DNA of 64,000 nt from an uncultured Flavobacteriales bacterium (lineage in GTDB: Bacteria > Bacteroidota > Bacteroidia > Flavobacteriales_D > CAJJDF01). The DNA lies in assembly GCA_964021785.1 (NCBI GenBank), contig CAXIAX010000002.1:4801-68800 (forward strand), given 5' to 3'. A program made the position numbers and the translations under genes. How positions within the stretch are numbered: the stretch's first letter is position 1; each line of letters starts with the position of its first letter. This document shows, piece after piece, positions 1 through 15,725 of the stretch. The notes under the pieces were generated by a model, which worked only from the letters and a program-made list of their open reading frames with translations, did no database searches and was not told the origin of the DNA.

Positions 1-605
1 TCATTTATATTGGAATATCCTTCTTTTGATTTAATCAATTCACTAGCATTGATGGCTTTCCCATAACTCACTAGTAAATCTGCTGTTTTGTTTCTCGTGT
101 TAGAGTAATTTAATCCTACCGGAACTACCCAAATATCTTGCTCCGCTTCTGTATCCGCTTGCAAAGCAATTCTCGCAATACCTTTTTTTAGTTGTCTTAA
201 TCTATTCTGATTGTTATGACTTCCTTCCGGAAAAATGATAATTCTACCATTATTACCTAAAATTTCACTACATCTATTGAAAATTTCTATGTTCTTTTCT
301 TTAAAATCTGCTCCATCTCTTTCTCTATAAATAGGTAACATATTCATTGAGTAAAGAATTTTTGCAATGGCAGGTTTTTTAAATACATCCGATTTAGTAA
401 GAAAAAATACAGGATACCTATTGGTAGTAGCAATTACGATAGGATCTATCAAAGAGTTTTGATGATTCACAGCAAATATTACCGGTTTGTTTTTAGGAAT
501 ATTACTTAAGCCTTGGCGTGTTACACGTTTGTAATATCCTTGCTTGGTAAACCAAACTAGAATAAATCCCACTACATAAGTTGGAGTCCAATTTTTAACT
601 CTCAT
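1..605 (-). CDS. Lysophospholipid/glycerol-3-phosphate acyltransferase family protein (PlsC-like). The 3' end is cut by the window edge.
   Basis: Not in the ORF track because it runs off the window. My translation from ATG (complement of 603-605) gives MRVKNWTPTYVVGF...VIFAVNHQNSLIDP...IIIFPEGSHNN. These are acyltransferase-type NHxxxxxD and FPEG motifs. Confidence 0.7.
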   Translation of the reverse strand, partial: MRVKNWTPTYVVGFILVWFTKQGYYKRVTRQGLSNIPKNKPVIFAVNHQNSLIDPIVIATTNRYPVFFLTKSDVFKKPAIAKILYSMNMLPIYRERDGADFKEKNIEIFNRCSEILGNNGRIIIFPEGSHNNQNRLRQLKKGIARIALQADTEAEQDIWVVPVGLNYSNTRNKTADLLVSYGKAINASELIKSKEGYSNIN

Positions 606-684
606 CTACTAATTTGTTAAATAAAATACTGTAATCATCTCTAAACTTAAATATAAGGTAAAATTCAATCTAAACTACTTATAA

Positions 685-720
685 ACTAAAAAAACCGCTC
701 CAATTTAAAGGAACGGTTTT
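685..720 (-). terminator. Rho-independent terminator downstream of nqrF
   Basis: Hairpin aaccgctcc/ggaacggtt (8 bp, 1 mismatch, 8-nt loop), followed on the minus strand by a T-run. It lies between the nqrF stop (741) and the next gene start (605). Confidence 0.6.
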
Positions 721-740
721 TAAAAATTTAATCTTAGAAT

Positions 741-2042: not shown

Positions 2043-2050
2043 AATTTGTT

Positions 2051-2665
2051 TTATATATTAAATCCTAAAAATCCTAAAAATGCTAACCCCATTAGCCCTG
2101 TCAAAATAAATGCCATTCCTACTCCTCTTAAAGGTGCTGGAACGTGAGAATATTTAATTTTTTCTCTAATAGCTGCTAACAATACAATTGCTACAAACCA
2201 TCCAAATCCTGATCCTAATCCATATATCGTAGCATGACCTACTGATGGAAAGTTCTTTTGTTGCATAAACAATGATCCCCCAAGAATTGCACAGTTTACT
2301 GCAATAAGTGGTAAGAAGATTCCTAGTGCTCCATAAAGTGCTGGAGAGAATTTCTCTACCAACATTTCTACCAATTGTACAATAGATGCAATTACTGCGA
2401 TAAACATGATGAAACTTAAGAAACTTAAATCAACATCTGCATACTCTGCACCTAACCAAGCCAAAGCGCCATCCTTAAGGATATATGACTCTAATAAATA
2501 ATTGACTGGTACTGTTACAACCAATACAAATATTACAGCTAATCCTAATCCAAAAGCTGTTTTTACCGTTTTTGATACAGCTAAGTAAGAACACATTCCG
2601 AAGAAGAACGTGAATACCATGTTGTCAACAAAAGCTGCTCTAATAAATAATTTAAATAATTCCAT
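2051..2665 (-). CDS. nqrE: Na+-translocating NADH:quinone oxidoreductase subunit E
   Basis: 204-aa polytopic membrane protein of NqrE/RnfA type, at the expected position between nqrD and nqrF. Confidence 0.92.
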   Translation of the reverse strand: MELFKLFIRAAFVDNMVFTFFFGMCSYLAVSKTVKTAFGLGLAVIFVLVVTVPVNYLLESYILKDGALAWLGAEYADVDLSFLSFIMFIAVIASIVQLVEMLVEKFSPALYGALGIFLPLIAVNCAILGGSLFMQQKNFPSVGHATIYGLGSGFGWFVAIVLLAAIREKIKYSHVPAPLRGVGMAFILTGLMGLAFLGFLGFNI

Positions 2666-2696
2666 TTTTTATATATTAATTCTTTTTGTGTTCTAT

Positions 2697-3359
2697 TTAG
2701 TTTTCTTCAATTAGACTTGGTGTTTTACTTTTTTGAACCCAAATGTAAAGTGCTACCAAAATCAAAGATGAAGGAGGTAATAACATCAATCCATTATCTT
2801 CATATCCTATAGAATATAATCCTGTTTTTTCTATACTGTCTCCAAATACAGGGAATCCAAATACACTTCCTGATCCAAATAATTCTTTGAAGAAAGCAAC
2901 TACCATTAAGATTAATCCATATCCTAATCCGTTTCCTAATCCATCTAGTACTGATCCCCATGGTTTGTTACCAAGAGCATATGCTTCTAGTCTTCCCATA
3001 ATAATACAGTTGGTAATAATCAATCCTACAAATACAGATAAAGATTTAGAAACATCATATACAAATGCTTTCAAAACTTGATCTACTATAATTACAAGTG
3101 CTGCTACAATTACTAATTGTACAATAATCTTGATTTTTGTAGGAATCATATTTCTCATTAATGAAACTATTAAGTTTCCTAAGATCAATACAAACATTAC
3201 CGCTATAGACATTACAAAGGCATTATCCATTTGTACTGTTACTGCCAATGCAGAACAAATTCCTAATACTTGAATAGTAACAGGGTTGTTAAGGTTTAGT
3301 GGATCCGATATTAATTTTTTATTCTTTTTTGAGAACAAAGCTTCTTTTGTTTCAGACAT
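2697..3359 (-). CDS. nqrD: Na+-translocating NADH:quinone oxidoreductase subunit D
   Basis: 220-aa polytopic membrane protein of NqrD/RnfE type (NPVTIQVLGICSALAVT), in operon position. Confidence 0.92.
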   Translation of the reverse strand: MSETKEALFSKKNKKLISDPLNLNNPVTIQVLGICSALAVTVQMDNAFVMSIAVMFVLILGNLIVSLMRNMIPTKIKIIVQLVIVAALVIIVDQVLKAFVYDVSKSLSVFVGLIITNCIIMGRLEAYALGNKPWGSVLDGLGNGLGYGLILMVVAFFKELFGSGSVFGFPVFGDSIEKTGLYSIGYEDNGLMLLPPSSLILVALYIWVQKSKTPSLIEEN

Positions 3360-3385
3360 ATCTTTTGTTTTTATTCTTTAAAAAA

Positions 3386-4306
3386 TTAGTTATTTGCCAA
3401 TATAGCGTTAGTATCAATTACTAATTGAGCCATAGAATCTAAATAAGTAGAATCCATCATAGATGAATCAGTTACGTTTTCTATTACTGCTGGTGCTTCT
3501 ACTCTATTATTTTCAAAGTATTTGTTGTAAACAGACAATGATCTTTTCATCATTTCTTCTACTCCTACTGCTGTAAATGTAGCTCCACTTAATCCTGCAA
3601 CTTCATATTCTTTACGTTCGTTACCTGGCTTAATCACTTTTATTGGTCTGTATTCGTTTTCTTCATTAGTAATTACTTTACCTACGAAATCATTGTTAAA
3701 TACAGCTTCTGTCATTTTTGATCCTAAACCTGGAGTTTCTCCCTTGTGGTCAAATACAGTTCCGTTAATTGTTCTTCCGTCTTCTCTCAATGAAATATAT
3801 CCCCAGATATCATCCCAAAGTCCTTTTCCACTGAAATATGTGATGTAAAATGTTTCACCATCTTTCTCACACACAAACATTGGATAAGTAATTCCTGCTT
3901 CTTTCAATCCTGCTTCATATTCTGCACCTCCTTCTGGGAATTTTTTCATTAATCCAGTTAAGTTGTTGTAATACTTTCTTACGTCTACATTAAAAGCATC
4001 CAATTCATTTTTATCTTTAATTGGGTCTGCACTAGATAATTCAGAAATTACATTTCCGTCATAATCCAATACTATTCTCTTTGTAATGTAATCGTTAAAT
4101 ATTGCTCCAGCTTCGTCTCTTGTTACAGATTTTGTTTCATCAATACCAATTGACTGAAGAATATTTTGCATTTTCTCATTCTTCACGTTTTCTTGTTGAA
4201 TTGGCTTAAGAGATGAGGCTATGTATGCCAATAATCCTCCTACTACAACTACCATTATAATTGCAAAGATTAAAGTATATCCGTTTCCTTCTTTATTTAT
4301 ACTCAT
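3386..4306 (-). CDS. nqrC: Na+-translocating NADH:quinone oxidoreductase subunit C
   Basis: 306 aa with a single N-terminal TM helix and an FMN-attachment-type motif (LSGATFT), in operon position. It carries a C-terminal tail beyond the FMN domain. Confidence 0.85.
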   Translation of the reverse strand: MSINKEGNGYTLIFAIIMVVVVGGLLAYIASSLKPIQQENVKNEKMQNILQSIGIDETKSVTRDEAGAIFNDYITKRIVLDYDGNVISELSSADPIKDKNELDAFNVDVRKYYNNLTGLMKKFPEGGAEYEAGLKEAGITYPMFVCEKDGETFYITYFSGKGLWDDIWGYISLREDGRTINGTVFDHKGETPGLGSKMTEAVFNNDFVGKVITNEENEYRPIKVIKPGNERKEYEVAGLSGATFTAVGVEEMMKRSLSVYNKYFENNRVEAPAVIENVTDSSMMDSTYLDSMAQLVIDTNAILANN

Positions 4307-4330
4307 TGTAATTTTTTTTTAAATTGAAAA

Positions 4331-5533
4331 TTAAGCTGATGCTTTAGCTAGTCTTTTTTCTCTTTTTTTAATGTTTGAATTAATTACCATGTGGTCAATT
4401 AAAGGTGCTGTTACGTTTGCAATTAATATCGCAAGCATTACTCCTTCTGGATAAGCTGGGTTTGCAACTCTAATAAGAATTGCTAAAAATCCTGCTAAAA
4501 ATCCATAAAACCATTTTCCTTTGCTTGTTTGTGAAGCTGTTACTGGATCAGTAATCATAAATACCATCCCGAACATAAATCCTCCTAATAACAATTGGTG
4601 AATTGCTGGCAACTGCATATATGCATTGTCTCCTGCAACTAAATTGAAGATAGAAGCCATTACAAATCCTCCTAAGAAGAATGAAACAACTATTCTCCAA
4701 CTAGCGATTCTTGTTAGTAACAAAAATCCTAATCCTATTAAAATAGCGATTGTAGAAGTTTCTCCTATAGATCCTAAATAATCACCAGTTAATGCTCTAG
4801 CCATTGTAATTCCATTTGTAGTGAAATCTGTAATACTTTCGTAAGCTGGGTTATCTGTAGTCATAGAAGCTAATTCTCCTAAAGGTGTTGCTCCTGTATA
4901 TCCATCAGCAATTTTTACTGCTGCATCTGCTTTAGCTGCACCAAATCCTGAAGTCCATACTGTATTACCAGACATAGAAGTTGGGTGAGCAAAGAATAAG
5001 AAAGCTCTTGTTGTTAAGGCTACATTCACTACGTTCATTCCTGTTCCTCCAAATACCTCTTTTCCTATTACTACACCAAAAACAACTGCTACTGCCACCA
5101 TCCAAAGTGGAGTATCTACTGGCATAATCAATGGAATTAACATTCCCGACACTAAGTATCCTTCGTGTAATGAGTGTCCTTTTATTATTCCAAAAATGAA
5201 CTCTACTGCTAATCCTACTCCGTAAGATACGGCTACGATTGGCAATACTCTTAATGCTCCGTGTAAAAACTTGTCTCCAAATTCTGCAGATTCACCCAAC
5301 ATAACAAAATGTTGTTCTCCTACATTCCACATTCCAAAAAGTAAACAAGGAACCATTGCCAAGATTACGAACATCATTGTTCTTTTCAAATCTACTGCAT
5401 CTCTAATGTGAGCTCCAGATTTTGTTGTATGATTTGGCGTAAAAAGTATCGTGTCAAATGACTCCACCAAAGGATGCCACTTGTGACCCACTTTTTCATA
5501 CTGTTTATCGAAAAAATTTCTTAAAAATTTCAT
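4331..5533 (-). CDS. nqrB: Na+-translocating NADH:quinone oxidoreductase subunit B
   Basis: 400-aa polytopic membrane protein with a YTGATPLG flavinylation-type motif, in operon position. Confidence 0.92.
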   Translation of the reverse strand: MKFLRNFFDKQYEKVGHKWHPLVESFDTILFTPNHTTKSGAHIRDAVDLKRTMMFVILAMVPCLLFGMWNVGEQHFVMLGESAEFGDKFLHGALRVLPIVAVSYGVGLAVEFIFGIIKGHSLHEGYLVSGMLIPLIMPVDTPLWMVAVAVVFGVVIGKEVFGGTGMNVVNVALTTRAFLFFAHPTSMSGNTVWTSGFGAAKADAAVKIADGYTGATPLGELASMTTDNPAYESITDFTTNGITMARALTGDYLGSIGETSTIAILIGLGFLLLTRIASWRIVVSFFLGGFVMASIFNLVAGDNAYMQLPAIHQLLLGGFMFGMVFMITDPVTASQTSKGKWFYGFLAGFLAILIRVANPAYPEGVMLAILIANVTAPLIDHMVINSNIKKREKRLAKASA

Positions 5534-5567
5534 ATTATTTTATAAGGTTTATTAATAGAATAAAGAG

Positions 5568-6908
5568 TTACATACACTCTTCCTCAATTACTTTTAATCC
5601 GTCTCTAATTATTTGCTGAGAATTTATCTTTGAAGTACATACAAATTCACACAAGGCAAAATCTTCTGGAGCTACTTCGTAGATCCCAAGTTTTTCCATC
5701 TTGTCGATATCGTTTGTAATTACTGCTTTTAATAATTGTACTGGGTAAATATCAAAAGGGAATACCTTTTCATATTGTCCTGACATTACAAATGCTCTTT
5801 CTTCTCCGTTAGTATTCGTATCAATATCGTATGCTTTTTTTGGAAGCAAACTAGATAAGAATGTTTGAGAATTAGATAATTTAGTAAATCCTGGAGCCAT
5901 CCATCCTTCTGTGAAAGAGAATTTATGTTGATCTCCTTCTGGAATTACTGTTACTTGATTTTCGTAAAATCCTAAGAATCCTTCTTTACCAACATTTTCA
6001 CCTGTCAATAAGTTTCCTGAGATATACCTTACGTTTTCAGAACTGATTTTTCCTTCTACCAAATCAGCCATTTTTGCTCCTGATACTAATCTGTAGTATG
6101 CTGGCGCTTTAACTTCCGACCCAGTCAATGCAACTACCTTAGTTGTATCAATTGTTCCTTTAGTCATTAAGGTTCCAATTCTTGCTACATCTACTGCATT
6201 AATTGTCCACACAGTTTCTCCTTTATTAATAGGAGCAATTGCATGAATTTGTGTTCCCACATTTCCTGCCGGATGTTTGCTATTGATAGTATGTAATTCA
6301 ATTCCTGTTACTCCAGAAAAAATACTTGTGTTTTTTCCTGCAGCTTCAATTGTTACATTTACTTTTCCTTTAGTCAATTTAGCCAAAGCATCAAATCCTG
6401 CTTGTAACTCAGATTTTTTATCCTTAAGGATATATTCATAATCTGGAGCTAATGGAGCCGAATCAAAACCTGACACGTAGATAGCAAGAGGTGATTTATT
6501 ATAATCTGCCACTATATCCAACGGTCTTTGCTTTATGCAAGGCCACAATCCACTTTTAAGAATTGTTTCTTTTGTATCTCCACTAGTGTCTATCGATTCA
6601 AAAGTAAAATCTTTGTCTGCTTTTATAAGCACTTCCAAGATTTTTCTCTTCGCTCCTCTTACCACACCTTCTATCTCTCCACTTACTGGCGACACATAAT
6701 TTATGGCCTCACGGTATTTGTCATGAAATATAGGTGTTCCTACTTTTACTTTATCTCCAACCTTTACAACCATTTTAGGTGTAAGTGATGGGAAATCAGC
6801 AGGTTTTACAGAGTAGTGAGATGAGTTTGAAACTTCACTAATTGTTAATTCGGGTTTCCCCTTTACTTTAAGGTCTAGACCTTTTTTAATTTTTATAGCT
6901 TTTGCCAT
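5568..6908 (-). CDS. nqrA: Na+-translocating NADH:quinone oxidoreductase subunit A
   Basis: 446-aa soluble protein and first gene of the nqr block. The N-terminus MAKAIKIKKGLDLKVKG is typical of NqrA. Confidence 0.92.
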   Translation of the reverse strand: MAKAIKIKKGLDLKVKGKPELTISEVSNSSHYSVKPADFPSLTPKMVVKVGDKVKVGTPIFHDKYREAINYVSPVSGEIEGVVRGAKRKILEVLIKADKDFTFESIDTSGDTKETILKSGLWPCIKQRPLDIVADYNKSPLAIYVSGFDSAPLAPDYEYILKDKKSELQAGFDALAKLTKGKVNVTIEAAGKNTSIFSGVTGIELHTINSKHPAGNVGTQIHAIAPINKGETVWTINAVDVARIGTLMTKGTIDTTKVVALTGSEVKAPAYYRLVSGAKMADLVEGKISSENVRYISGNLLTGENVGKEGFLGFYENQVTVIPEGDQHKFSFTEGWMAPGFTKLSNSQTFLSSLLPKKAYDIDTNTNGEERAFVMSGQYEKVFPFDIYPVQLLKAVITNDIDKMEKLGIYEVAPEDFALCEFVCTSKINSQQIIRDGLKVIEEECM

Positions 6909-6933
6909 TTGATGTAATTCTACATTTAGAATG

Positions 6934-6941
6934 CAAACTTA
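6934..6941 (-). promoter_or_regulatory. Candidate Bacteroidota -7 promoter box (TAAGTTTG) for the nqr operon
   Basis: The plus strand reads caaactta, which is TAAGTTTG on the minus strand and matches TAnnTTTG. It sits about 26 nt upstream of the nqrA ATG. Confidence 0.35.
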
Positions 6942-7090
6942 TGAAAAGGAAAAATTATTTAATAATTCTTACCCCTATTTTTTGCTCTGTCACTACAACA
7001 TTTGCCTATTTATAATCAATCTAAATAAGAAGAATTCATATTTGTGGATTAATCTTAATTTGGATTAAAGAATCTAAACAAACAATTGTA

Positions 7091-7098
7091 TATATTTG
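7091..7098 (+). promoter_or_regulatory. Candidate -7 promoter box (TATATTTG) for the CBS-type synthase gene
   Basis: Matches TAnnTTTG, 35 nt upstream of the ATG at 7133. Confidence 0.35.
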
Positions 7099-7132
7099 CA
7101 AAATATTAAACAGAAAGACACCCAAAAATCCT

Positions 7133-8488
7133 ATGAAATACTACAATAATATTCTTGAAACCATTGGAAACACTCCTTTAGTTAAACTTAATGTATTAAC
7201 TAAAGAAATTGATGCATTGGTATTGGCTAAAGTTGAAACTACTAATCCAGGAAACTCTGTAAAAGACAGAATGGCCTTGAAAATGATTGAGGATGCTGAG
7301 AAAAATGGAAACCTTAAACCTGGTGGAACACTTATAGAAGGTACTTCTGGTAATACTGGTATGGGACTTGCCTTGGCTTGTATCATTAAAGGATATAAAT
7401 TAATATGCGTATTGAGCGACAAGCAATCCAAAGAGAAAATGGATATCTTGAGAGCTGTAGGTGCCGAAGTTGTAGTTTGTCCGACTAACGTAGATGCAGA
7501 TGACCCAAGGTCTTATTATAGTGTATCAAAAAGATTGGCTGAAGAAACACCAAATAGCTGGTACGTGAACCAATACGATAACTTATCGAACAGAGCTGCT
7601 CATTACGAAAGTACTGGTCCAGAGATTTGGGAACAAACTGAAGGAAAAATCACTCACTTTGTTGTTGGTGTTGGTACTGGAGGAACTATTTCTGGAGTTG
7701 GGAAATATTTGAAAGAAAAAAATCCAGACATAAAAATTATTGGAATAGATACGTATGGTTCGGTATTTAAAAAATACCACGAAACTGGAATTTTTGACGA
7801 AGCAGAAATATACCCTTATATAACGGAAGGAATTGGGGAAGATATTTTACCAAAAAACGTAGACTTTAGTGTTATTGATCATTTTGAGAAAGTAACGGAT
7901 AAAGATGCTGCAATCATGACACCAAGAATTGCCAAAGAAGAAGGGATTTTTGTTGGAAACTCTGCAGGTTCTGCGGTAAAAGGAATGTTGCAAATGAAAC
8001 ACATGTTCAAGAAAGATGATGTGGTTGTTGTACTGTTTCATGACCACGGAAGTAGATACGTAGGTAAATTCTTTAACCAAGACTGGATGAAAGAAAGAGG
8101 ATTTGTAGAAAACAAAGAAACTACGGCTCAAGACATCATTAGCACAGAAGGAAACTTAGTGATAGCAAATCATGACGAATCAATTAGTTCTGTAGTTGAG
8201 AAAATGGCTAGATTTAGTATTTCTCAATTTCCTGTATTCAATGGAAAAGAAATTGTAGGTTCTATTAGCGAAACTAATATTATCAATCATTTATTCAACA
8301 GCCCTGATGCAAAGAGAGACAGCATAGAGTCTATTCTTTCTCCTGCTTTTCCTGTAGTGGCATTGAACACAAAAATGGAAGACATATCTAAAATGATTAC
8401 CAAAGAAAATGCAGCTGTAATGGTACAAAATGAAGATGATTCTTACAGCATTATTACTAAACAAGACTTGATAAAAGCAATATCATAA
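7133..8488 (+). CDS. PLP-dependent cysteine synthase / cystathionine beta-synthase with a C-terminal tandem CBS-domain pair
   Basis: 451 aa with the PLP-lysine motif NPGNSVKDR and the GTSGNTG and GVGTGGTISG loops. The C-terminal ~120 aa has a CBS-pair pattern. Confidence 0.85.
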   Translation: MKYYNNILETIGNTPLVKLNVLTKEIDALVLAKVETTNPGNSVKDRMALKMIEDAEKNGNLKPGGTLIEGTSGNTGMGLALACIIKGYKLICVLSDKQSKEKMDILRAVGAEVVVCPTNVDADDPRSYYSVSKRLAEETPNSWYVNQYDNLSNRAAHYESTGPEIWEQTEGKITHFVVGVGTGGTISGVGKYLKEKNPDIKIIGIDTYGSVFKKYHETGIFDEAEIYPYITEGIGEDILPKNVDFSVIDHFEKVTDKDAAIMTPRIAKEEGIFVGNSAGSAVKGMLQMKHMFKKDDVVVVLFHDHGSRYVGKFFNQDWMKERGFVENKETTAQDIISTEGNLVIANHDESISSVVEKMARFSISQFPVFNGKEIVGSISETNIINHLFNSPDAKRDSIESILSPAFPVVALNTKMEDISKMITKENAAVMVQNEDDSYSIITKQDLIKAIS

Positions 8489-8492
8489 TAAT

Positions 8493-10295
8493 TTGAGCGA
8501 AACAAAAAATATAAGCCTACTGAAAAGAATTATGGTTTTTCAGAAACCATATAAATTGATGTTTTGGCTAACCGTTTCTGGTACCATACTAAATTCAATT
8601 TTAGCACCCATAAGACCCATTATTATTGGTTTTATGATAGATAAATTTGTAATGAAATCATCTAGTTTCAAAGGGGCCTCTGGCCTGCTAGATGATTTCA
8701 ATACTTCTTTAGCGCCAGATAACGGATTTTTGTATTGGACAATTGTGGCTTTGGGTACTGTGATTATTGAAGCTCTTTTGAGGTTTGCAACCGTGTATTA
8801 CACCAATTTAATTGGACAAAACATTATTGCAGATATTCGTGAGAAACTATTCAATCACATTATCCAATTCAAAACTCAATATTTTGACAAAAACCCAATA
8901 GGGAAATTGGTTACTAGATTAGTTTCTGATGTAGAAGCGGCTTCCGAAATTTTCTCTAACGGGATTATTACCATAGCCGGAGATTTACTTGGGCTTATTC
9001 TTGTTATTACCTTTATGTTTATAGAAAACTGGGTATTTGCCCTTATGATTCTATTGCCTCTTCCCCTCCTATTTTGGGCAACCAATATTTTTAAAAATGC
9101 GATCAAAAAAGCCTACCAACTAGAAAGTTCGCAGGTATCTAAACTGAATACGTTTGTACAAGAAAGAATTACAGGAATGAGTATTCTTCAACTTTTTTCT
9201 CGTGAACAAAATGAATACAAGGAATTTACAGAAATAAACAAAGGGCACAGAAACGCACACATTAAGTCCGTTTGGGCCTATTCTATCTTCTTTCCTGTGG
9301 TAGAGATTTTGAGCTCCATTTCTATTGCTTTTGTAATCTTTTATGCCTCTTATCAAATAATAGATCGCCCAATAGATGAGGCCAGTACAGGACAATTAAT
9401 TGCATTTATTCTTTGGGTAAATATGCTGTACAGACCTATTAGAATGCTTGCCGATAAATTTAATGTGATACAAAGAGGATTGGTGAGAGCCAAAAATATT
9501 TTTGAAGTTTTGGATGATAACCAAATTATTAACTCCAAAAGTGAAGGTCCTACCAACACAACTTTTAAAGGAGAAGTTTCATTTAAAAACGTGTGGTTTG
9601 CCTACAATGATCCCGATTATATCTTAAAAGATATTTCTTTTGATATTGCAGCAGGACAAACTGTAGCATTTGTAGGAGCTACTGGTGCAGGGAAATCTAG
9701 TATTATCAATATCTTGAGCCGTTTTTATGAATACCAAAAAGGAAGCATAACGGTTGATGGAAAAGATTTGAGAGAGCTCACGCTTGAAGACATCAGACAA
9801 AACATTGCTGTTGTATTGCAAGATGTATTTTTATTTTCAGATTCTATCTTGAACAACATCACCCTAAAAGATCCTACTATTACCAGAGAACAAGTGATAG
9901 AAGCTTCCAAATTTGTAGGGTTACATGATTTTATCATGAAATTGCCAGGAGATTACGATTACAATGTAAAAGAAAGAGGTGCAGCATTATCTACAGGGCA
10001 AAGGCAATTAATTTCGTTTGTGAGAGCTTATGTTTACAACCCTAAGATTCTTATTTTGGACGAAGCCACTTCTAGTATCGATACCGAAACAGAAGAACTT
10101 ATTCAAACTGCCATTGAGAAACTAACCAAGGGAAGAACTTCTATTTTGGTTGCTCACAGATTATCTACCATTAAAAATGCAGATAAAATCATTGTACTGG
10201 ACAAAGGAAAACTAATGGAACAAGGAAACCACGAAGAGCTTCTTGCTCAGAATGGTATCTACAAGAATTTATACGAAATTCAGTTTGAGGATTAA
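8493..10295 (+). CDS. ABC transporter, fused permease/ATPase (MsbA-like exporter)
   Basis: 600 aa with a six-TM N-terminal half, Walker A GATGAGKSS, signature LSTGQRQ and Walker B ILILDEATS. The start is TTG at 8493; an alternative ATG lies at 8532. Confidence 0.9.
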   Translation: MSETKNISLLKRIMVFQKPYKLMFWLTVSGTILNSILAPIRPIIIGFMIDKFVMKSSSFKGASGLLDDFNTSLAPDNGFLYWTIVALGTVIIEALLRFATVYYTNLIGQNIIADIREKLFNHIIQFKTQYFDKNPIGKLVTRLVSDVEAASEIFSNGIITIAGDLLGLILVITFMFIENWVFALMILLPLPLLFWATNIFKNAIKKAYQLESSQVSKLNTFVQERITGMSILQLFSREQNEYKEFTEINKGHRNAHIKSVWAYSIFFPVVEILSSISIAFVIFYASYQIIDRPIDEASTGQLIAFILWVNMLYRPIRMLADKFNVIQRGLVRAKNIFEVLDDNQIINSKSEGPTNTTFKGEVSFKNVWFAYNDPDYILKDISFDIAAGQTVAFVGATGAGKSSIINILSRFYEYQKGSITVDGKDLRELTLEDIRQNIAVVLQDVFLFSDSILNNITLKDPTITREQVIEASKFVGLHDFIMKLPGDYDYNVKERGAALSTGQRQLISFVRAYVYNPKILILDEATSSIDTETEELIQTAIEKLTKGRTSILVAHRLSTIKNADKIIVLDKGKLMEQGNHEELLAQNGIYKNLYEIQFED

Positions 10296-10310
10296 GCATT
10301 TATCCTAATC

Positions 10311-10420
10311 CCTCTCCTCTTACTTTTCTTCATTTTCTAACGAATTTCACTACCCATTCGCCAAATTATTCTGTCTTTTTGGGAACTATAATTTAGTGGA
10401 AACCTCTATATTCGTTTTAG
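10311..10420 (+). repeat. Copy 1 of a ~108-bp intergenic element (95 bp perfect core at 10324-10418); attC-like candidate
   Basis: Positions 10324-10418 are identical base for base to 12410-12504. The element begins TTCTAAC (10335-10341) and ends GTTTTAG (10414-10420). The outer stem AACGAAT/ATTCGTT plus the inner pairs TTCAC/GTGGA and CCAAA/TTTGG give an imperfect ~85-nt hairpin. Confidence 0.8.
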
Positions 10421-10444
10421 AACAAAAAACTAATTAGAATTTAT

Positions 10445-10458
10445 TTTAGTTAACTAAA
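10445..10458. promoter_or_regulatory. 14-bp perfect palindrome TTTAGTTAACTAAA upstream of the WYL regulator gene (candidate operator)
   Basis: The palindrome is read directly from the sequence. It lies 51 nt upstream of the ATG at 10509. Confidence 0.3.
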
Positions 10459-10508
10459 CCAGTGCCAAAATTATATTTTTAATTTAAAATACTGTAATTA
10501 CATTAAAA

Positions 10509-11198
10509 ATGGAATATACCGAAGTAAATAGATTGTCTAGATTAACAGCCATGTTAATTCAATTTCAGACGAAGCGAATTATTACAGCAACTGAATTATC
10601 TCAAAAATTTCAAGTTAGCAAAAGGACAATTTACCGAGATGTAAAAGCATTGGAACAAGCTGGTGTGCCTATTTTGACAGAAGAAGGAAAAGGATATACA
10701 CTAATGGAAGGTTATAAAATACCTCCAGTAATGTTTACCGAAAAACAAGCAAATGCCTTAATTCTTGCAGAACAGTTAGTCTTAAATAGCAAGGATGCTT
10801 CATTCGTAAAAGATTATTCGGAAGCTATTGATAAAATCAAATCAATTTTAAAGTATAGTATAAAAGATAAAGCAAATTTACTTACTGATAGAACGCAATA
10901 TAACGAAGTTAAAAATCAAGTAAAAAACAGTGACAATCTATCCGATTTACAAAACGCACTTACTAATTATAACCTTGTGCGAATAGATTACACAAACAAG
11001 GAAAATACAGTAACAACAAGACTCATAGAGCCTTTTGCCATTATAAATTCAACAAATTGGTATTTAGTAGCTTGGTGTCGTTTGCGTAATGAATTTCGTT
11101 TTTTTAGACCTGATAGAATTCAGAAAATGGAAATTTTATCCGAAAATTTTGAACCTCACAATATGACTTTACAGGAATATTTTGATAAATATCATTAG
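10509..11198 (+). CDS. YafY-type transcriptional regulator (N-terminal HTH plus WYL domain)
   Basis: 229 aa. The N-terminus RLSRLTAMLIQFQTKRIITATELSQKFQVSKRTIYRDVKALEQAGVPI is the DeoR/HTH_11 pattern of YafY/WYL regulators. The C-terminus contains WYLVAWC. Confidence 0.75.
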   Translation: MEYTEVNRLSRLTAMLIQFQTKRIITATELSQKFQVSKRTIYRDVKALEQAGVPILTEEGKGYTLMEGYKIPPVMFTEKQANALILAEQLVLNSKDASFVKDYSEAIDKIKSILKYSIKDKANLLTDRTQYNEVKNQVKNSDNLSDLQNALTNYNLVRIDYTNKENTVTTRLIEPFAIINSTNWYLVAWCRLRNEFRFFRPDRIQKMEILSENFEPHNMTLQEYFDKYH

Positions 11199-11239
11199 TT
11201 ATTTTTGACCCTTGCCATAAGGCTGTCATAGACCCAATT

Positions 11240-11247
11240 TACTTTTG
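11240..11247 (+). promoter_or_regulatory. Candidate -7 promoter box (TACTTTTG) for the hydrolase gene
   Basis: Matches TAnnTTTG, 30 nt upstream of the ATG at 11277. Confidence 0.3.
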
Positions 11248-11276
11248 CATCATATTCATTTTAAACAATAAAAAAT

Positions 11277-12239
11277 ATGACAAACGTAATTAACAAAAAA
11301 TTCAATTTGATTGAATTTCCAATTTCCACAATGATTTCTATCAATGGTATAGAATTAGAAGTTTTTGAAGCAGGTAAACAAAATACAGGTAATCCCATTG
11401 TACTTTGCCACGGGTTTCCAGAAAACGCATTTTCTTGGCGTTTTCAAATCCCCGAACTAGTTAAAGCTGGCTATCACGTTATTGTTCCAAACCAAAGAGG
11501 TTATGGAAAATCATCTTGGCCAACGGAAATATCAGCTTATGGTATTGAAAATTTAACAGGAGACCTAGTTGCTCTACTCGACCACTACGGATATGAAAAA
11601 GCTACCTTTATAGGTCACGATTGGGGTGCTAATATTGTTTGGAGTCTAGCATTATTACATCCTGAGAAAGTAAATAAAATAATAAATTTGGCTTTACCCT
11701 ATATGCAAAGAGGAGAAAAACCATGGATAGAGTTTATGGAAGAAATATTTGGACCAGATAATTATTTTGTTCACTTTAATAGACAAGTAGGAGTCGCAGA
11801 TGCTATTTTGGATGAAAACAAATCTCAATTTCTTGGTAATTTGTTCCGAAAAAATGTACCTCTTGCAATGCCTGAACCAGGTATGATGATGATTAATCTT
11901 GCAAAAGCAGAAAAATCACTTGGAGACCCAATAATGAGCGAAAGTGAGTTAGCTGTTTATGTTTCTGCTTTCGAAAAATCTGGATTTACAGGAGGAATAA
12001 ATTGGTATAGAAATCTTGACCAAAATTGGCATTTATTGACAGATGTGAATCCTATCATTAAACACTCTGCACTTATGATTTATGGAAACCAAGATATGAT
12101 TCCTAAATCTGAAAATTTAACAGATTTTGTTCCTAATGTAGAAGTAGTTAGTTTAGATTGTGGTCATTGTATACAGCAAGAACTTCCCGAAGAAACGAAT
12201 AAAACGATTTTAAAATGGCTAGCTAGCCATAAATCGTAA
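11277..12239 (+). CDS. Alpha/beta hydrolase, epoxide hydrolase / haloalkane dehalogenase-like
   Basis: 320 aa with an HGFPE oxyanion-hole motif, a GHDWG nucleophile elbow and a C-terminal GHC catalytic-His region. Confidence 0.8.
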   Translation: MTNVINKKFNLIEFPISTMISINGIELEVFEAGKQNTGNPIVLCHGFPENAFSWRFQIPELVKAGYHVIVPNQRGYGKSSWPTEISAYGIENLTGDLVALLDHYGYEKATFIGHDWGANIVWSLALLHPEKVNKIINLALPYMQRGEKPWIEFMEEIFGPDNYFVHFNRQVGVADAILDENKSQFLGNLFRKNVPLAMPEPGMMMINLAKAEKSLGDPIMSESELAVYVSAFEKSGFTGGINWYRNLDQNWHLLTDVNPIIKHSALMIYGNQDMIPKSENLTDFVPNVEVVSLDCGHCIQQELPEETNKTILKWLASHKS

Positions 12240-12396
12240 AATAATATATAAGCATAGCATATTAATGCCAAATAGATGGACACAGCTAATTTTAAAAAAT
12301 TAGTTGATGAGAAAAATCTGTTTGGCATTTTTATAAAATATCAACCCAAAAGCAGAGTACATCTCTGTAATGGAGAAATAGGAAGAATTCCCAACC

Positions 12397-12506
12397 CCTC
12401 TCCTTCTAATTTTCTTCATTTTCTAACGAATTTCACTACCCATTCGCCAAATTATTCTGTCTTTTTGGGAACTATAATTTAGTGGAAACCTCTATATTCG
12501 TTTTTA
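12397..12506 (+). repeat. Copy 2 of the ~108-bp intergenic element (95 bp perfect core at 12410-12504)
   Basis: Identical to 10324-10418, with a degenerate 13-nt 5' extension (10 of 13 matches). It begins TTCTAAC (12421-12427), ends GTTTTTA (12500-12506) and sits 13 nt upstream of the ATG at 12519. Confidence 0.8.
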
Positions 12507-12518
12507 AATAAAATCACC

Positions 12519-13196
12519 ATGAATAAAACCCTAAAACAAGCTAGTTTTCTTCTTCTATTTTCCTTTGTTTTGTTTGGTTGCAACAGCAATAAAACAAACA
12601 ATAAATTTGAAATGCAACAAGGAGACATATTGTTTCAAAATACAGGGACAGATGAAATAGACAATGCCATAAAAGATGTAACGGCTACTGCCTTGGCAAA
12701 AAACTATTCGCATGTGGGGATTGCCATGCAAAAAGAAGGAAAATGGTTTGTAGTAGAAGCCATACCTAAAAAAGGAATTTGCCAAACTCCTTTACAAAAA
12801 TTCCTAGACAGGCATACAAACAAATTGAACAAATCGCAGACTACTGTAGCCAGACTAGACAGCTATTACCAGCCCTATATTGCTACGGCTATAACTTACG
12901 GACTAGAAAGATTAAATACACCTTATGATGAAGTGTTTTTGTGGGACGATTCTTCTTATTATTGCTCCGAATTAGTGTATAAAATGTTCTCTACTCAAGA
13001 TTTACCCAAAGATTCTATTCCTTTTCTTACTCACCCAATGACTTTTAACGACAGCACAGGAAACCCAATGCCTAGCTGGGAATCGTATTACAAAAAACGC
13101 AATCAGCCAATTCCTGAGGGAATTGAAGGTACAAATCCTAACCTGATGGCGAGCAGTCCGCTTATCACTTTTGTGCACGATTACGAGAACGAATAA
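12519..13196 (+). CDS. YiiX-family permuted papain-like (NlpC/P60 superfamily) lipoprotein
   Basis: 225 aa with a lipoprotein signal (LFGC) and the motifs GDILFQ, SHVGIA and YCSELVY, which are characteristic of YiiX/DUF830-type enzymes. Confidence 0.6.
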   Translation: MNKTLKQASFLLLFSFVLFGCNSNKTNNKFEMQQGDILFQNTGTDEIDNAIKDVTATALAKNYSHVGIAMQKEGKWFVVEAIPKKGICQTPLQKFLDRHTNKLNKSQTTVARLDSYYQPYIATAITYGLERLNTPYDEVFLWDDSSYYCSELVYKMFSTQDLPKDSIPFLTHPMTFNDSTGNPMPSWESYYKKRNQPIPEGIEGTNPNLMASSPLITFVHDYENE

Positions 13197-13380: not shown

Positions 13381-13466
13381 CATAACAAAACAACTACCTA
13401 TAAAGCTAGTAAACTATATCCCGCGATATAGAGTATACTGTTAACTATATACTGTTGTTCTAAGCC
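13381..13466 (+). repeat. Repeat-dense junction element: CATAAC box, nested palindromes, tandem TATACTGTT repeats and a GTTCTAA box
   Basis: CATAAC at 13381-13386. The palindrome ctatat-cccgcg-atatag spans 13414-13431. The direct repeat tatactgtt occurs at 13434-13442 and 13448-13456, and aactatat at 13412-13419 and 13443-13450. GTTCTAA lies at 13457-13463. Confidence 0.6.
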
Positions 13467-13477
13467 ATTACCTAAAT

Positions 13478-14029
13478 TTGGAAATTGAAAATAAAATATT
13501 ATTAGTATTGGATTTAGACGAAACTCTAATTCATGCAACTGAAAGAAAACTCGAAATTGATTTTGACTTTCAGTATGCTGACTATTTTATTTATCGAAGA
13601 CCACACCTTGAATGGTTTCTGGAGTCTATGAGTGCTGATTTTAAATTAGCTGTTTGGTCCTCTGCTGACGATAAATATGTTGAAGAAATAGTTGAAAGAA
13701 TAAAACCTCCAAGTATTAAGTTTGAATTTGTTTGGGGTAGAACTCGTTGTACAACTAAAAGAGATTATGAACTTGATGAATACGTTCACGAAAAAAGACT
13801 TAAAAAAGTAAAAAAACAAGGGTTTTCAATTGAGCAGATATTGATGGTAGACGATTCTCCTGAAAAGACAAAAGATAATTATGGAAACGCAATTTATGTG
13901 ACAGCTTTTGAGGGAAAACAAAATGATACTGAATTAAAAACTCTTGCGGAATATTTAAACTCAATTAAAAGCACTTCAAATGTGAGAAGTTTTGAGAAAA
14001 GAGGATGGAAAAATAACAAAACGGCTTAG
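13478..14029 (+). CDS. FCP1/NIF (NLI-interacting factor)-like HAD-superfamily phosphatase
   Basis: 183 aa. The catalytic DxDxT motif is near the N-terminus (LVLDLDETLIH), followed by RPHLEWFL...LAVWSS and MVDDSP, matching the CTD-small-phosphatase fold pattern. The only start codon available is TTG. Confidence 0.7.
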   Translation: MEIENKILLVLDLDETLIHATERKLEIDFDFQYADYFIYRRPHLEWFLESMSADFKLAVWSSADDKYVEEIVERIKPPSIKFEFVWGRTRCTTKRDYELDEYVHEKRLKKVKKQGFSIEQILMVDDSPEKTKDNYGNAIYVTAFEGKQNDTELKTLAEYLNSIKSTSNVRSFEKRGWKNNKTA

Positions 14030-14217
14030 AACACTATATATAGCAAATTGGGCGATTAGTGTTTAATCGAAAGGTATGTGTCTATTTGCAAAGTCGCCAA
14101 ATCTTTTGATTTGGTATTAAAGAAAAAAATTAAAACAAAATAAAAAGATTTGGCTTGTGGCTAAACTGAAAGTAATACTTATTTTCTGCCCAACTTGCCA
14201 TATATTTAACGTTATGC
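14023..14217 (+). repeat. Intergenic element A: ~190-nt imperfect hairpin closed by AAC...GTT (attC-like candidate)
   Basis: It starts inside the upstream stop codon (ggcTTAGAAC, 14023-14032). Arm 14036-14052 pairs with arm 14189-14205 (15 of 17 Watson-Crick pairs by my count). AAC 14030-14032 pairs with GTT 14211-14213. It ends GTTATGC (14211-14217). Confidence 0.65.
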
Positions 14218-14237
14218 AAAAATTTATTGCAGCAAAC

Positions 14238-14693
14238 ATGAAAACTTTACCGACAATACTGACAATACTGACAATTTTAATATTTTCATTTTTTTGTAGT
14301 TGTGTTGACAGAAACCCGACTAAAAACCAAGACAATGATGGAACGACTGATTCTATAATTAATTGCTATGAACTGATAGGACAATTACCTAACCTGACAA
14401 TAGAGAACTCAAAATATTATGGCAAAGTCTTTTTGGAAGTTTTTTATGATTCAACTAAGAATTCCTTTGAAAAATATTTAATTGTGAGATCAACAATATG
14501 GAAGAAATCTGACAAATCAGTGTTTAGCCATTATGATTCTGATACAAAAATGTCTGTACCTGAGATTTATACTGAAATTATAAAAGAGATTAAAAACCGA
14601 GTTGACAATTCAGACCTTAAACTGAAACGAAAAGAAAATATTGAAAAATGCGAAGACGTTAATTGGCTCATTTTACCTGTTGAAGTTAAATAA
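14238..14693 (+). CDS. Hypothetical small lipoprotein
   Basis: The track ORF 14157..14693 is trimmed to the in-frame ATG at 14238, which gives MKTLPTILTILTILIFSFFCSC, a lipoprotein signal. The upstream extension lies inside repeat element A. Confidence 0.6.
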   Translation: MKTLPTILTILTILIFSFFCSCVDRNPTKNQDNDGTTDSIINCYELIGQLPNLTIENSKYYGKVFLEVFYDSTKNSFEKYLIVRSTIWKKSDKSVFSHYDSDTKMSVPEIYTEIIKEIKNRVDNSDLKLKRKENIEKCEDVNWLILPVEVK

Positions 14694-14699
14694 AATCTG

Positions 14700-14722
14700 T
14701 GCATAACAAATGATATAGCAAA
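14700..14722 (+). repeat. Truncated copy of the left arm of element A/B
   Basis: tGCATAACaaatgatatagcaaa resembles 14026-14047 (ttagaacactatatatagcaaa). It ends abruptly 4 nt before the ATG at 14727. Confidence 0.5.
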
Positions 14723-14726
14723 CATC

Positions 14727-15476
14727 ATGAAAAAAGCGATTATACTTCTTTTATTTTTCAGTTTAAAGGTGAATGGATTTGGGCAAAAACCAAAACTATT
14801 TATTCATGAGGATGATACCTGTTTTGTTTTACCTGATAGTTTAAAAATGGAAAATTTCTCTTATTTCAACAAACCAAATCAATCTTTTTCTAACGGAATT
14901 TGGATACAAATTATAGACAGTAGTTTTTTCTGTAAGTTCACTTTAAAGAATAACATTTTACACGGAAAATATACCTATTTCCGACCTGAAATTGAAGCTC
15001 AAGGAAACTACACAAATGGAACTAGACAAGGACCATATTTTAGATATAATAAATCAGGTGATATAGTTTACAAGTGTTATTTTGAATCAGGAAACCAATT
15101 AGATTCATACTTTTATTACAACAATAGAAATTTAAAAAAAAGATTTCTTAACACTTCCGATACTACAAGTTTTCATTCATATTATTATTTGAACGGTTTT
15201 AAAAAATCTGAAGGGACATATTTTAACAAATATAATGTTAAAACATCCGAGTTTGACTTTTGGAAAATTGGAAAATGGTCAAATTGGTTTGGTAATGGTG
15301 TGATTAAATCTTCCGGTTATTATAATGACGGCAAAAAGGATTCTGTATGGAAGTATTATAACGAAAAAAGCGAATTTGAAAAATGTGAATATTACAAAAA
15401 AGGAATATTAATTAAATCTTCGTTTACATCAATTATTAATATAGAAGGAAAAGAAATAGGAACACCTGAAAAATAG
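14727..15476 (+). CDS. MORN-repeat-variant protein, YwqK (antitoxin/immunity)-like, with signal peptide
   Basis: 249 aa with repeated G-x-Y/W-x-x-Y/F-x-x-G motifs (HGKYTYFRPE, RQGPYFRYNKSGD, GKWSNWFGNG, KKDSVWKYYNEKSE) typical of the MORN_2/YwqK family. Confidence 0.6.
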   Translation: MKKAIILLLFFSLKVNGFGQKPKLFIHEDDTCFVLPDSLKMENFSYFNKPNQSFSNGIWIQIIDSSFFCKFTLKNNILHGKYTYFRPEIEAQGNYTNGTRQGPYFRYNKSGDIVYKCYFESGNQLDSYFYYNNRNLKKRFLNTSDTTSFHSYYYLNGFKKSEGTYFNKYNVKTSEFDFWKIGKWSNWFGNGVIKSSGYYNDGKKDSVWKYYNEKSEFEKCEYYKKGILIKSSFTSIINIEGKEIGTPEK

Positions 15477-15477
15477 A

Positions 15478-15668
15478 CATTTTCTAACATTATGTATAAA
15501 ACATAGCTGGTAAGTGCTAGTCCGAAAGGTTTATGCCTATTTATAAAGTCCACCAAGTCTTTTTAATTTGGCTTTAGAACGAAAGAGATAAAACAAAATA
15601 AAAAGTTTTGGCTTAGTGCTTAATCGAAAATTAATAACTTTTTAATCACCAACTCTTCTTCTACTAAC
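15478..15668 (+). repeat. Intergenic element B: homologue of element A with a decayed right arm
   Basis: It aligns with element A over ~150 nt and shares the perfect 17-mer taaaacaaaataaaaag (15589-15605 versus 14131-14147). It begins cattttctaac (15478-15488), an 11-mer shared with 10331-10341 and 12417-12427. The right end reads ...ctaacCCT instead of ...ttaacGTT. Confidence 0.65.
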
Positions 15669-15725
15669 CCTCCCGTAAGGCAATTCCTCTAAGTCCGTTC
15701 AATAAAGAATACGCTAGCGCCTTGT

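Follow-up and report, generated by a model that had tools for sequence, protein, structure and literature searches.

A 64,000-nt stretch of DNA from an uncultured marine Flavobacteriales bacterium (hereafter the window) contains two copies of a non-coding direct repeat, here termed R (left copy R1, right copy R2), on either side of a small operon for a helix-turn-helix (HTH) WYL regulator and an alpha/beta-fold hydrolase. From the assemblies compared, this 2,086-bp operon is a presence/absence cassette within its species, because exact empty alleles were found in two contigs (L111 and L128) and a joint of module end, R and module start in a third (L006). R itself forms the spacer that separates a conserved gene for an ABC exporter from the gene of a YiiX-type lipoprotein. 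The movement of the cassette is attributed, with moderate confidence, to homologous (RecA-type) recombination between R copies, R being the junction element in the first slot of a strain-variable array of the integron type. The features on which the argument depends are as follows.

8532-10295, plus strand: ABC exporter (MsbA-like; Pfam ABC_membrane and ABC_tran), left anchor of the variable island
10304-10427, plus strand: R1, with a degenerate edge (10304-10323), the identical core (10324-10418) and then 6/9 matches
10335-10341, plus strand: R''-like TTCTAAC within R1
10339-10345 and 10410-10416, plus strand: stem AACGAAT with ATTCGTT within R1
10407-10414, plus strand: -7-box-like TATATTCG within R1, followed by a putative crossover point G|TT at 10414|10415
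10419-10508, plus strand: leader of the WYL gene, beginning with TTTTAGAAC, in which TTAGAA is the reverse complement of TTCTAA in R'', offset by TT
10509-11198, plus strand: HTH and WYL (YafY-family) regulator, first cassette gene (Pfam HTH_11 and WYL; PADLOC WYL model, 1e-54)
11277-12239, plus strand: alpha/beta-fold hydrolase (haloalkane-dehalogenase/epoxide-hydrolase-like; Pfam Abhydrolase_1), second cassette gene
12264-12330, plus strand: hairpin with T-run, probable operon terminator (DNA fold -14.1 kcal/mol, z -3.7, 0/200 shuffles)
12390-12513, plus strand: R2, with a diverged left edge (12390-12409) and the identical core (12410-12504); putative G|TT at 12500|12501, then TTTTTAAAT, the YiiX start codon lying 14 nt past the core
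12519-13196, plus strand: YiiX/Peptidase_C92 lipoprotein (Pfam), second cassette

The repeat and the three states of the locus

All 95 bases of 10324-10418 recur unchanged at 12410-12504, in direct orientation and at an offset of 2086. This identity, a left extension with 10/13 matches and the end of identity 4 nt past the G of the terminal GTT had been described from the sequence alone, and all were reproduced by sequence comparison. An exact match of this length cannot be chance. Ungapped extension (10303-10427 versus 12389-12513) gives 94% identity; on the left, 15/20 bases match over 10304-10323, the 10/13 being the innermost 13 nt, and on the right identity stops after CGTTTT. All 5 mismatches of the 115-nt homology fall within the leftmost 20 nt, which has a probability of ~1.6e-4 under uniform divergence (own arithmetic). 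The left edge was therefore considered to have a separate history. Beyond it, at 10270-10303, there is no significant homology (14/34 in-register matches, P=0.09), and the idea that the region upstream of R2 is a decayed 3' end of the ABC gene was rejected on this count.

R occurs twice in the window, both strands searched. Apart from contigs of the same species, no dispersed copies were found in the window or at any fetched locus, nor was any R-like sequence found outside the source species at these loci. An exact 30-mer of R was absent from the JGI metagenome contigs and an exact 24-mer from the viral contigs. Many dispersed copies, which the sequence-only reading had named as the finding that would speak against it, were thus not encountered in the window, the fetched loci or the two collection scans, and a dispersed family of the repetitive extragenic palindrome or miniature inverted-repeat transposable element kind was rejected.

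The empty state is documented by two assemblies. In L111, a 73.7-kb Logan contig that runs unbroken through R, the ABC gene is followed by 137 nt with a single R and then by YiiX, and the module is absent. The ABC protein of this strain is identical to that of the window, and its flanks are 99.2-99.8% identical. L128, a MEGAHIT k141 contig from a separate study, has the same junction. Over both contigs the flanks are 98.3-99.8% identical to the window, within the same species (~99.5%), and the spacer arithmetic is exact (137 = 2223 - 2086). Their single R is a hybrid: its left flank and edge are identical to those of R1 and its right flank to that of R2. The module is thus flanked by direct repeats, and the alternative allele has exactly one hybrid R and is otherwise unchanged, as in a repeat-mediated indel. 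The module had been proposed as a unit of recombinational insertion with precise deletion as a consequence, and the deletion allele in two independent assemblies bears this out.

A third state is seen in L006, an ENA contig of low coverage (2.8x). Here, sequence resembling 12263-12388 runs into R and then into the WYL leader and gene, a joint such as would come from an excised circle or a tandem copy. R is the sole sequence common to the joints of the filled window, the empty alleles and L006. Further Logan contigs from this species have one of their ends within R, at the very positions at which a k=31 graph has to branch. In SRR32062210, R1 and R2 differ at one base, C/A at 10341, and have distinct left contexts (ABC versus module end); A/T at 10349 is another example of a difference between the two copies.

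The perfect identity of the two copies needs little explanation. Between strains, the module diverges by 0.15-0.24%, similar to the flanking core genes, and a strain divergence of 0.15-0.5% gives ~0.3-0.5 expected differences per 95 nt. Identity at 95/95 positions is therefore expected without special force. Strong selection or gene conversion, both suggested earlier as possible causes, is not required, and one strain does show a difference between R1 and R2.

The bracketed genes were confirmed by Pfam as an HTH-WYL regulator and an alpha/beta hydrolase. The gene order is NqrA, a cystathionine-beta-synthase (CBS)-like protein, the ABC exporter, R1, HTH-WYL, hydrolase, the terminator-like hairpin, R2 and YiiX/C92; a NIF-type phosphatase, two small secreted or lipoproteins and then strain-conserved genes follow 3' of YiiX. 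The open reading frame (ORF) of the exporter opens at 8493 (TTG), the called protein begins at 8532, and its exact 587-aa product is on record. Orthologues in sister species are 78-90% identical and keep the Nqr-CBS-ABC synteny, with different genes downstream. YiiX-ABC synteny was found in none of 18 related genomes. Exact-product look-ups gave no match for the hydrolase, the 600-aa ABC form or a 68-aa ORF across R2, and the NCBIfam matches of the hydrolase are all under cut-offs. In 36 of 80 related loci a WYL gene adjoins the hydrolase, and in 15 of these 36 a close, co-oriented WYL gene lies directly upstream.

Among distant Bacteroidota (Cyclobacterium, Algoriphagus, Flammeovirgaceae, Tenacibaculum and Balneola) the regulator is 80-88% identical, with no match between 88% and 100%. 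Regulators are not usually conserved to this degree, which would fit a cassette that spreads horizontally. Third-codon-position GC is 0.215-0.217 in the cassette genes (10509-12239), 0.30 in the ABC gene, 0.345 in YiiX and 0.21-0.22 in the NIF and 249-aa cassettes further downstream. The WYL leader holds a self-complementary 14-nt palindrome TTTAGTTAACTAAA at 10445-10458 and a perfect palindrome TGTAATTACA at 10493-10502, directly ahead of the ATG. The 14-mer AAAATACTGTAATN around the latter recurs at 622-635 in the window, and the palindrome may serve the WYL/HTH regulator as an operator. At 37 nt 5' of the hydrolase gene there is a perfect TAnnTTTG box.

An integron-type cassette array downstream of R

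The island that begins with R continues as a series of co-oriented small genes with the following elements.

13386-13463, plus strand: attC-like element after YiiX, ending ..CTATATACTGTTG|TTCTAA, with the R' box GTTCTAA at 13457-13463; bottom-strand fold z -2.1
13478-14029, plus strand: NIF/HAD-type phosphatase cassette (Pfam NIF); L111 has a different cassette here
14026-14217, plus strand: attC-like element of the NIF cassette, with R'' TTAGAAC (14026-14032), L'' TATATATAGC, L' GCCATATAT and R' GTTATGC (14211-14217)
14240-14707, plus strand: small lipoprotein cassette, ending in R'' GCATAAC (14701-14707), whose exact reverse complement is the R' box at 14211
15482-15614, plus strand: attC-like element after the gene of a 249-aa secreted protein (14727-15476), its left end being CATTTTCTAAC

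In this array, the 7-mer at the 5' end of a cassette is the reverse complement of the 7-mer that opens the element at its own 3' end. TTAGAAC at 14026-14032 is the perfect reverse complement of GTTCTAA at 13457 and was predicted from the cassette start before inspection. The same holds for L111, where GTTAGGC (9813) pairs with GCCTAAC (10630), 6 nt past the ORF stop and likewise predicted beforehand. A third pair, GTTATGC at 14211 and GCATAAC at 14701, brackets the small lipoprotein gene; the rest of the element after this cassette is lost and its R'' box remains. The start of the gene is probably the ATG at 14240, which gives a signal peptide and a lipobox-like Cys, and the listed GTG at 14157, upstream of the 14211 boundary, is probably wrong.

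A systematic test of the rule over 57 genes returned these two pairs of the window plus one probable chance hit. The latter, GTTATAC (59796-59802) with GTATAAC (60569-60575) around a tetrapyrrole-methylase gene, has both members inside neighbouring genes and was taken as chance because ~0.5 such hits are expected among 57 genes. In its strict form, the rule found no match for YiiX in 16 other genomes or for the island genes of the sister species, and the integron-like signature is therefore local rather than universal.

A second difference between strains was found in the island: the window departs from L111 precisely after ..ACTGTTGTT at 13459, behind the GTT of 13457-13459, so that the left breakpoint falls exactly at G|TT, and the right breakpoint (~15671) is not at GTT. 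The window carries the NIF phosphatase, the small lipoprotein and the 249-aa secreted protein at 13460-15670; L111 carries 261-aa and 100-aa ORFs at 9816-11152.

At 10.3-15.7 kb, at least two attC-type sites in the same orientation thus separate cassettes, with crossovers at G|TT, as in attC-site clusters that have no integron-integrase (CALINs), and the adjacent integrase gene of a complete integron was not found. Neither a recombinase nor a transposase was detected in the genes of the island or in the ORFs of 110 aa or more at 22-60.5 kb, nor among the Pfam labels of the near-identical L111 counterparts of 0.7-5.5 and 15.7-22 kb; the ORFs of 60.5-63.5 kb were not scanned. Since the attC-type junctions obey the cassette rule and an integrase was not found nearby, the island is at most CALIN-like.

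Elements of the same kind occur in other genomes, and several of them accompany the WYL-hydrolase operon. In L027 (JGI Ga0209344_10007829, 1-8418), the ORFs share one orientation, and behind each of them stands an element of 122-127 nt whose ends are conserved. Members of 122-135 nt are also present in L026, L028, L029, L054, L010, L009, L008 and L015. The family combines an R box of the form (C)AAC/GTT(G) with an L box GTGTAT/ATACAC, for which GTATAT/ATATAC occurs as a compensatory variant; the spacers, of 3 and 6 nt, are unpaired. The AAC 7-mer that opens an element is the reverse complement of the closing GTT 7-mer of the previous element, not of its own. Over 14 adjacent pairs on six contigs, this complementarity is perfect in 9, has one mismatch in 4 and two mismatches in 1. 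Complementarity of this kind is characteristic of cassette exchange by integrons at G|TT.

The WYL-hydrolase operon is bounded by GTTGTAA...TTACAAC in L027 and L029, the pair in L054 is one base off, and L028 has the downstream end only (R'' TTACAAC). The WYL leader of the window is homologous to leaders elsewhere over its last ~40 nt only, and the conserved part of the leaders in other genomes starts exactly at the GTT of GTTGTAA. In other Flavobacteriaceae, the operon is thus an attC-bounded cassette. The terminator-like hairpin is weakly conserved 3' of the hydrolase in L029. The notion that the operon is always bracketed by local direct repeats was rejected after flank-versus-flank BLAST with cross-locus controls: the flanking repeats at several WYL-hydrolase loci are dispersed elements common to the loci (control maximum 210 bits), namely the attC-like family.

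A covariance model built from 11 array elements of this Flavobacteriaceae family matched Tenacibaculum aquimarinum, a Psychroserpens metagenome-assembled genome, Mariniflexile sp. AS56 and Polaribacter sp. IC073; in the Mariniflexile (L008) and Polaribacter (L009) genomes the copies lie directly upstream of YiiX. In the IMG/VR collection, 19 contigs yielded 34 more copies, 58-210 nt long. Across the window the model had no significant match, the element at 15482-15614 giving a weak full-length one (11.5 bits, E=2). No integrase was found beside the small arrays in the Mariniflexile and Polaribacter loci. In L008 (6099-9207), the attC-like element ahead of YiiX has immediately upstream of it a Gabija-like pair, the genes of an AAA_15/AAA_21 ATPase and a UvrD-like helicase.

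In two IMG/VR contigs, a tyrosine recombinase of 266-277 aa adjoins the array in divergent orientation.

L129, 6288-7121, minus strand: recombinase; elements at 7510, 7989 and 8689
L139, 8588-9388, plus strand: recombinase; elements at 7372, 7006, 6618 and 4750 on the minus strand

The two proteins are 40% identical. Their best matches are the archaeal XerA/integron-integrase and integron-integrase models, below cut-offs, and the XerA and IntI4 structures. The integron-integrase model covers them in two separate stretches, from which we infer that they are without the IntI-specific insertion. In L129, the listed long ORFs between elements are on the strand opposite to the elements, unlike L027. 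In another fetched contig (L036, OJIO01003720.1), AGCTCTGTCTCTTATACACATCTCCGAG, repeated at 3126-3153 and 4467-4494, contains the Nextera adapter CTGTCTCTTATACACATCT, and this contig is probably adapter-contaminated or a chimeric join.

Proposed homologous exchange and its alternatives

A parallel indel was found in the same island of a sister species with an 89% identical ABC gene. Two genes, for a Crp-like cyclic-nucleotide-binding (cNMP-binding) regulator and an NAD_binding_10 protein, are flanked there by a duplicated spacer of ~160 nt (L117, 10020-10156 and 11711-11847) with 85% identical copies. Four independent contigs are filled (L117, L119, L122 and L126), and L118, L120 and L121 are empty with one copy. 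In the left copy, the initial ~50 nt are native-like (49/51) and the remainder is 81% identical; the right copy begins diverged (68%) and continues native-like at 96-99%. Such a reciprocal mosaic would be the product expected of a single crossover between the resident spacer and a homeologous copy on incoming DNA. The switch point falls close to the repeat's left end and not at G|TT. Copies that are 85% identical cannot collapse in assembly, and integrated structures of this kind are therefore real and not assembly loops.

By position, R occupies the array's first two junctions. On the preferred reading, R1 and R2 would both be copies of the junction element that belongs to the first array slot, right after the conserved ABC-exporter gene, and the unit between them would consist of the leader, the regulator, the hydrolase and the terminator. 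The filled, empty and joined states would interconvert through recombination between or at the R copies. Intramolecular exchange would delete the cassette as a 2,086-bp circle, leaving one R; unequal exchange would give tandem copies; and a single crossover of a circle or an incoming R-bearing fragment with a resident R would re-insert the cassette. The identity of the copies would then mean that the last exchange was recent on the scale of strain divergence. Besides the sister-species mosaic, the weak fold of R, the missing match to the array model and the failure to find a recombinase in the 64 kb argue for homologous exchange.

Through the duplication of R, YiiX would keep its native upstream sequence, and the inserted operon would acquire the same putative promoter in front of it. 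R carries a probable promoter of the downstream gene: TATATTCG is a TAnnTTTG -7 box with one mismatch that ends 4 nt before the R boundary, and a promoter-like TAATTTAG lies 44 nt ahead of the YiiX start. Because the search for Bacteroidetes -7 boxes in R gave only one-mismatch boxes, none with a -33 TTG, we infer the promoter role rather than assert it. Scans for a sigma-70-type promoter or a terminator within R were at chance level, and both were rejected. The motif (T)ATATTCGTTTNTAAA(T/C) is found at the right end of R (12493-12509), in island spacers of the sister species (L112, 10129; L117, 10093 and 11784) and after the ABC gene in L117 and L120 (~8795-8810), with unrelated flanking sequence. 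It may be a promoter or -7 element or a conserved recombination core.

Several points weigh against exchange by homology. When the copies are identical, RecA-type and integrase exchange yield the same products. R sits where an array needs its recombination sites, has AAC...GTT ends, and its identity ends 2-4 nt past G|TT. A simple single duplication does not account for the left edge, with 5 mismatches in 20 nt versus 0 in 95, which calls for a crossover or conversion boundary or for a foreign origin of the edge; nor does homologous exchange account for the first duplication of R. The left edge of L006 is a third variant, nearer R1 than R2. The integrated arrangement, with ABC-R-WYL and hydrolase-R-YiiX contiguous, is spanned by the window's own assembly only. 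Finally, the motifs behind the putative promoter of R are near-consensus ones.

R could itself be a functional attC-type site, served by an integron-type (Xer/IntI-like) recombinase encoded elsewhere, with crossovers at 10414|10415 and 12500|12501 and L006 as an excised circle. This is a real though doubtful possibility. It draws on the integron-type organisation of the island, the attC-like elements that adjoin the same operon and YiiX in other Flavobacteriaceae, the cross-cassette rule and compensatory changes of the family, and the arrays that abut a divergent Xer/IntI-clade recombinase in L129 and L139. An attC site is an inverted, imperfect repeat of roughly 57-141 nt that folds over its full length as a single bottom strand, and R has an attC-like layout as well. 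In the minimum-energy fold its AAC (10339-10341) pairs with its GTT (10414-10416), at a distance of 78 nt, TTCTAAC fits the R'' consensus RYYYAAC at 6/7, and TTTCACT/AGTG(G)AAA, read from the sequence as a possible L box containing one additional base, leaves spacers of 3 and 11 nt. At the right end, a TATA-rich box is followed by GTT, the left 11-mer CATTTTCTAAC is common with the element after the 249-aa gene, identity ends just past G|TT, and ATTCG|TTTTTAAA recurs right after the ABC gene in the sister species. The details fit less well. The R' consensus GTTRRRY is missed by GTTTTAG (R1) and GTTTTTA (R2), which keep GTT plus one or two positions. The WYL tail TTTTAGAA complements TTCTAA of R'' through TTAGAA only with a 2-nt slip, and YiiX matches at 5/7, against 7/7 in the neighbouring cassettes. 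The right-hand spacer of 11 nt compares with 4-6 nt in validated elements, and the fold of R (-7 to -8 kcal/mol, bottom-strand z -1.0 to -1.7) with -19 to -21 kcal/mol and z -2.7 to -4.3 in validated members. The 11-element model did not detect R1 or R2 at E up to 10 with filters off, a weak test because the validated island elements were barely detected either (E=2 and 3). Moreover, attC logic predicts neither a homology that reaches ~30 nt upstream of R'' nor a cassette attC identical to the resident first site, the sister-species mosaic switches away from G|TT, and no recombinase was found in the scanned genes and ORFs of the 64 kb. The earlier suggestion of an attC-type element is thus supported by the neighbourhood and by the same operon elsewhere, but not by the consensus, model match and fold of R itself or by an integrase nearby. 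On these comparisons, R is best regarded as a degenerate or atypical att-type junction. A Xer/dif-type site at TATATTCGTTTTTAAAT was rejected, as its arms are non-palindromic and its spacing is wrong for the dif consensus.

The folding results bear on a further alternative, in which selection keeps R identical as a functional RNA or cis-regulatory element (a small RNA, a riboswitch-like leader or a terminator) and the bracketing is incidental. The hairpin proposed in the sequence-only reading is partly upheld: the stem AACGAAT/ATTCGTT and the inner stems are present, but the fold is weak on both strands, as RNA and as DNA. As RNA it reaches -15 to -18 kcal/mol with z -1.5 and -2.3 on the plus strand and ~0 on the minus strand; as DNA it reaches -6 to -8 kcal/mol with z -0.9 to -1.7 (bottom strand -1.0 to -1.7). 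By these folding scores, the hairpin is not clearly superior to shuffled sequence. The modest plus-strand fold, the promoter-like boxes and a 17-21-nt motif TATATTCGTTTNTAAAT common to R and the sister-species spacers would suit selection. Near R, however, Rfam gave only chance-level matches to eukaryotic microRNA and long non-coding RNA models (E 3.7-10, searched up to E=10), and nothing at gathering score over the whole 64 kb, so that the small-RNA reading found no family behind it. With no R-like sequence outside the species at the fetched loci, there is no conservation or covariation to point to. Recency accounts for the identity, and the empty and junction alleles mark R as recombination end-points. 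Maintenance by selection is accordingly very improbable.

Nearly as improbable is an assembly artefact, in which the chromosome would be empty and the module would exist only as a circle or tandem array that shares R and was mis-threaded. Outside the window, only ABC-R-YiiX (L111, L128) and module-R-module (L006) were seen, with no independent contig spanning ABC-R-WYL or hydrolase-R-YiiX, and a repeat longer than k gives an identical de Bruijn graph for both arrangements. Yet a 2.1-kb circle without a replication gene cannot persist at assembly-level coverage, the sister-species insertion with its 85% repeats was assembled integrated in four independent contigs, and the one-base difference and distinct left contexts of the R copies in SRR32062210 are as an integrated single copy predicts.

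Significance and comparison with known systems

The window shows a small accessory operon being gained or lost in a natural population, and all three states (filled, exact empty and circle or tandem joint) were recovered from public assemblies. R predicts high-frequency, precise deletion or duplication of the WYL-hydrolase operon. In marine Flavobacteriales, the flexible islet behind a housekeeping gene for an ABC exporter has the layout of an integron's cassette array. Integron-like arrays are rarely reported in this phylum: Bacteroidota genomes are reported to hold almost no integrons, and CALIN-like structures have hardly been described from Bacteroidetes (PMC9024848). Among cultured bacteria, the element family is found in Polaribacter, Tenacibaculum and Mariniflexile. 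Should this be confirmed, gene shuffling of the integron type would be known from a dominant marine group of polysaccharide degraders as well, and their fine-scale strain diversity would have a concrete, testable mechanism.

The most interesting outcome would be the broader lead, an attC-type cassette system in Flavobacteriaceae with a Xer/IntI-like recombinase. More speculatively, R and the neighbouring junction elements may be recombination sites of a Bacteroidota-specific integron-like system, in which cassettes that include regulator-plus-enzyme operons with their own promoters are moved in trans by a compact Xer/IntI-clade recombinase, presumably without the IntI insertion. If this tentative view is true, core genes throughout the Flavobacteriaceae (Polaribacter, Tenacibaculum, Mariniflexile, Psychroserpens and lineages not yet cultured) would have short arrays next to them, the recombinase of the system would be the one found next to arrays on virus-like contigs, and the 95-bp repeat would be a freshly recombined site pair. 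Standard integron finders would then mostly overlook a cassette system in a major marine phylum.

The nearest known systems are integrons and CALINs. The island resembles them in its co-oriented small genes, separated by imperfect palindromes with ..AAC and GTT.. ends, in its G|TT boundaries with the cassette 5' 7-mer complementary to the 7-mer opening its own 3' element, and in its slot-by-slot strain variation and excised-circle-type joint; as in CALINs, no integrase was found nearby. It differs in that R misses the R' consensus and the family model and folds weakly, and in that the R copies are identical whereas the other array elements differ among themselves. Furthermore, the cassettes here have their own regulators, promoter-like boxes and terminator, and the recombinases beside related arrays are only 266-277 aa long and stay below the cut-off of the integron-integrase model. 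Near-identical repeats of ~120 nt also flank the cassettes of sedentary chromosomal integrons, such as the Vibrio cholerae repeats, and can support both integrase-mediated and homologous exchange. Unlike these, only two copies of R are present here, and the neighbouring elements are of other sequence types. In RefSeq, Bacteroidetes had only In0 elements and one complete integron, in Salinibacter ruber (PMC9024848), and Bacteroidota are named only among the phyla with some integrons (PMC8618304).

The additive flexible genomic islands of marine bacteria are another parallel, as hypervariable islets at a fixed position between conserved genes to which small cassettes are added or from which they are removed. 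In Actinomarinales, the target is a fragment of a tRNA gene, a direct repeat of which borders the cassettes, and tRNAs have been invoked as the place of site-directed recombination (PMC7771536). Here, in contrast, the repeat is a protein-gene spacer of ~115 nt. A tRNA-fragment target was rejected, as no tRNA or transfer-messenger RNA was found in the 64-kb window.

Campbell-type integration, finally, shares with the locus an insert flanked by direct repeats of the homologous segment and a precise loss that leaves one copy. The tandem or circle joints and the reciprocal mosaics of the sister-species repeat copies fit it as well. It differs in being a general mechanism rather than a family of elements, and it requires a circular or R-bearing donor.

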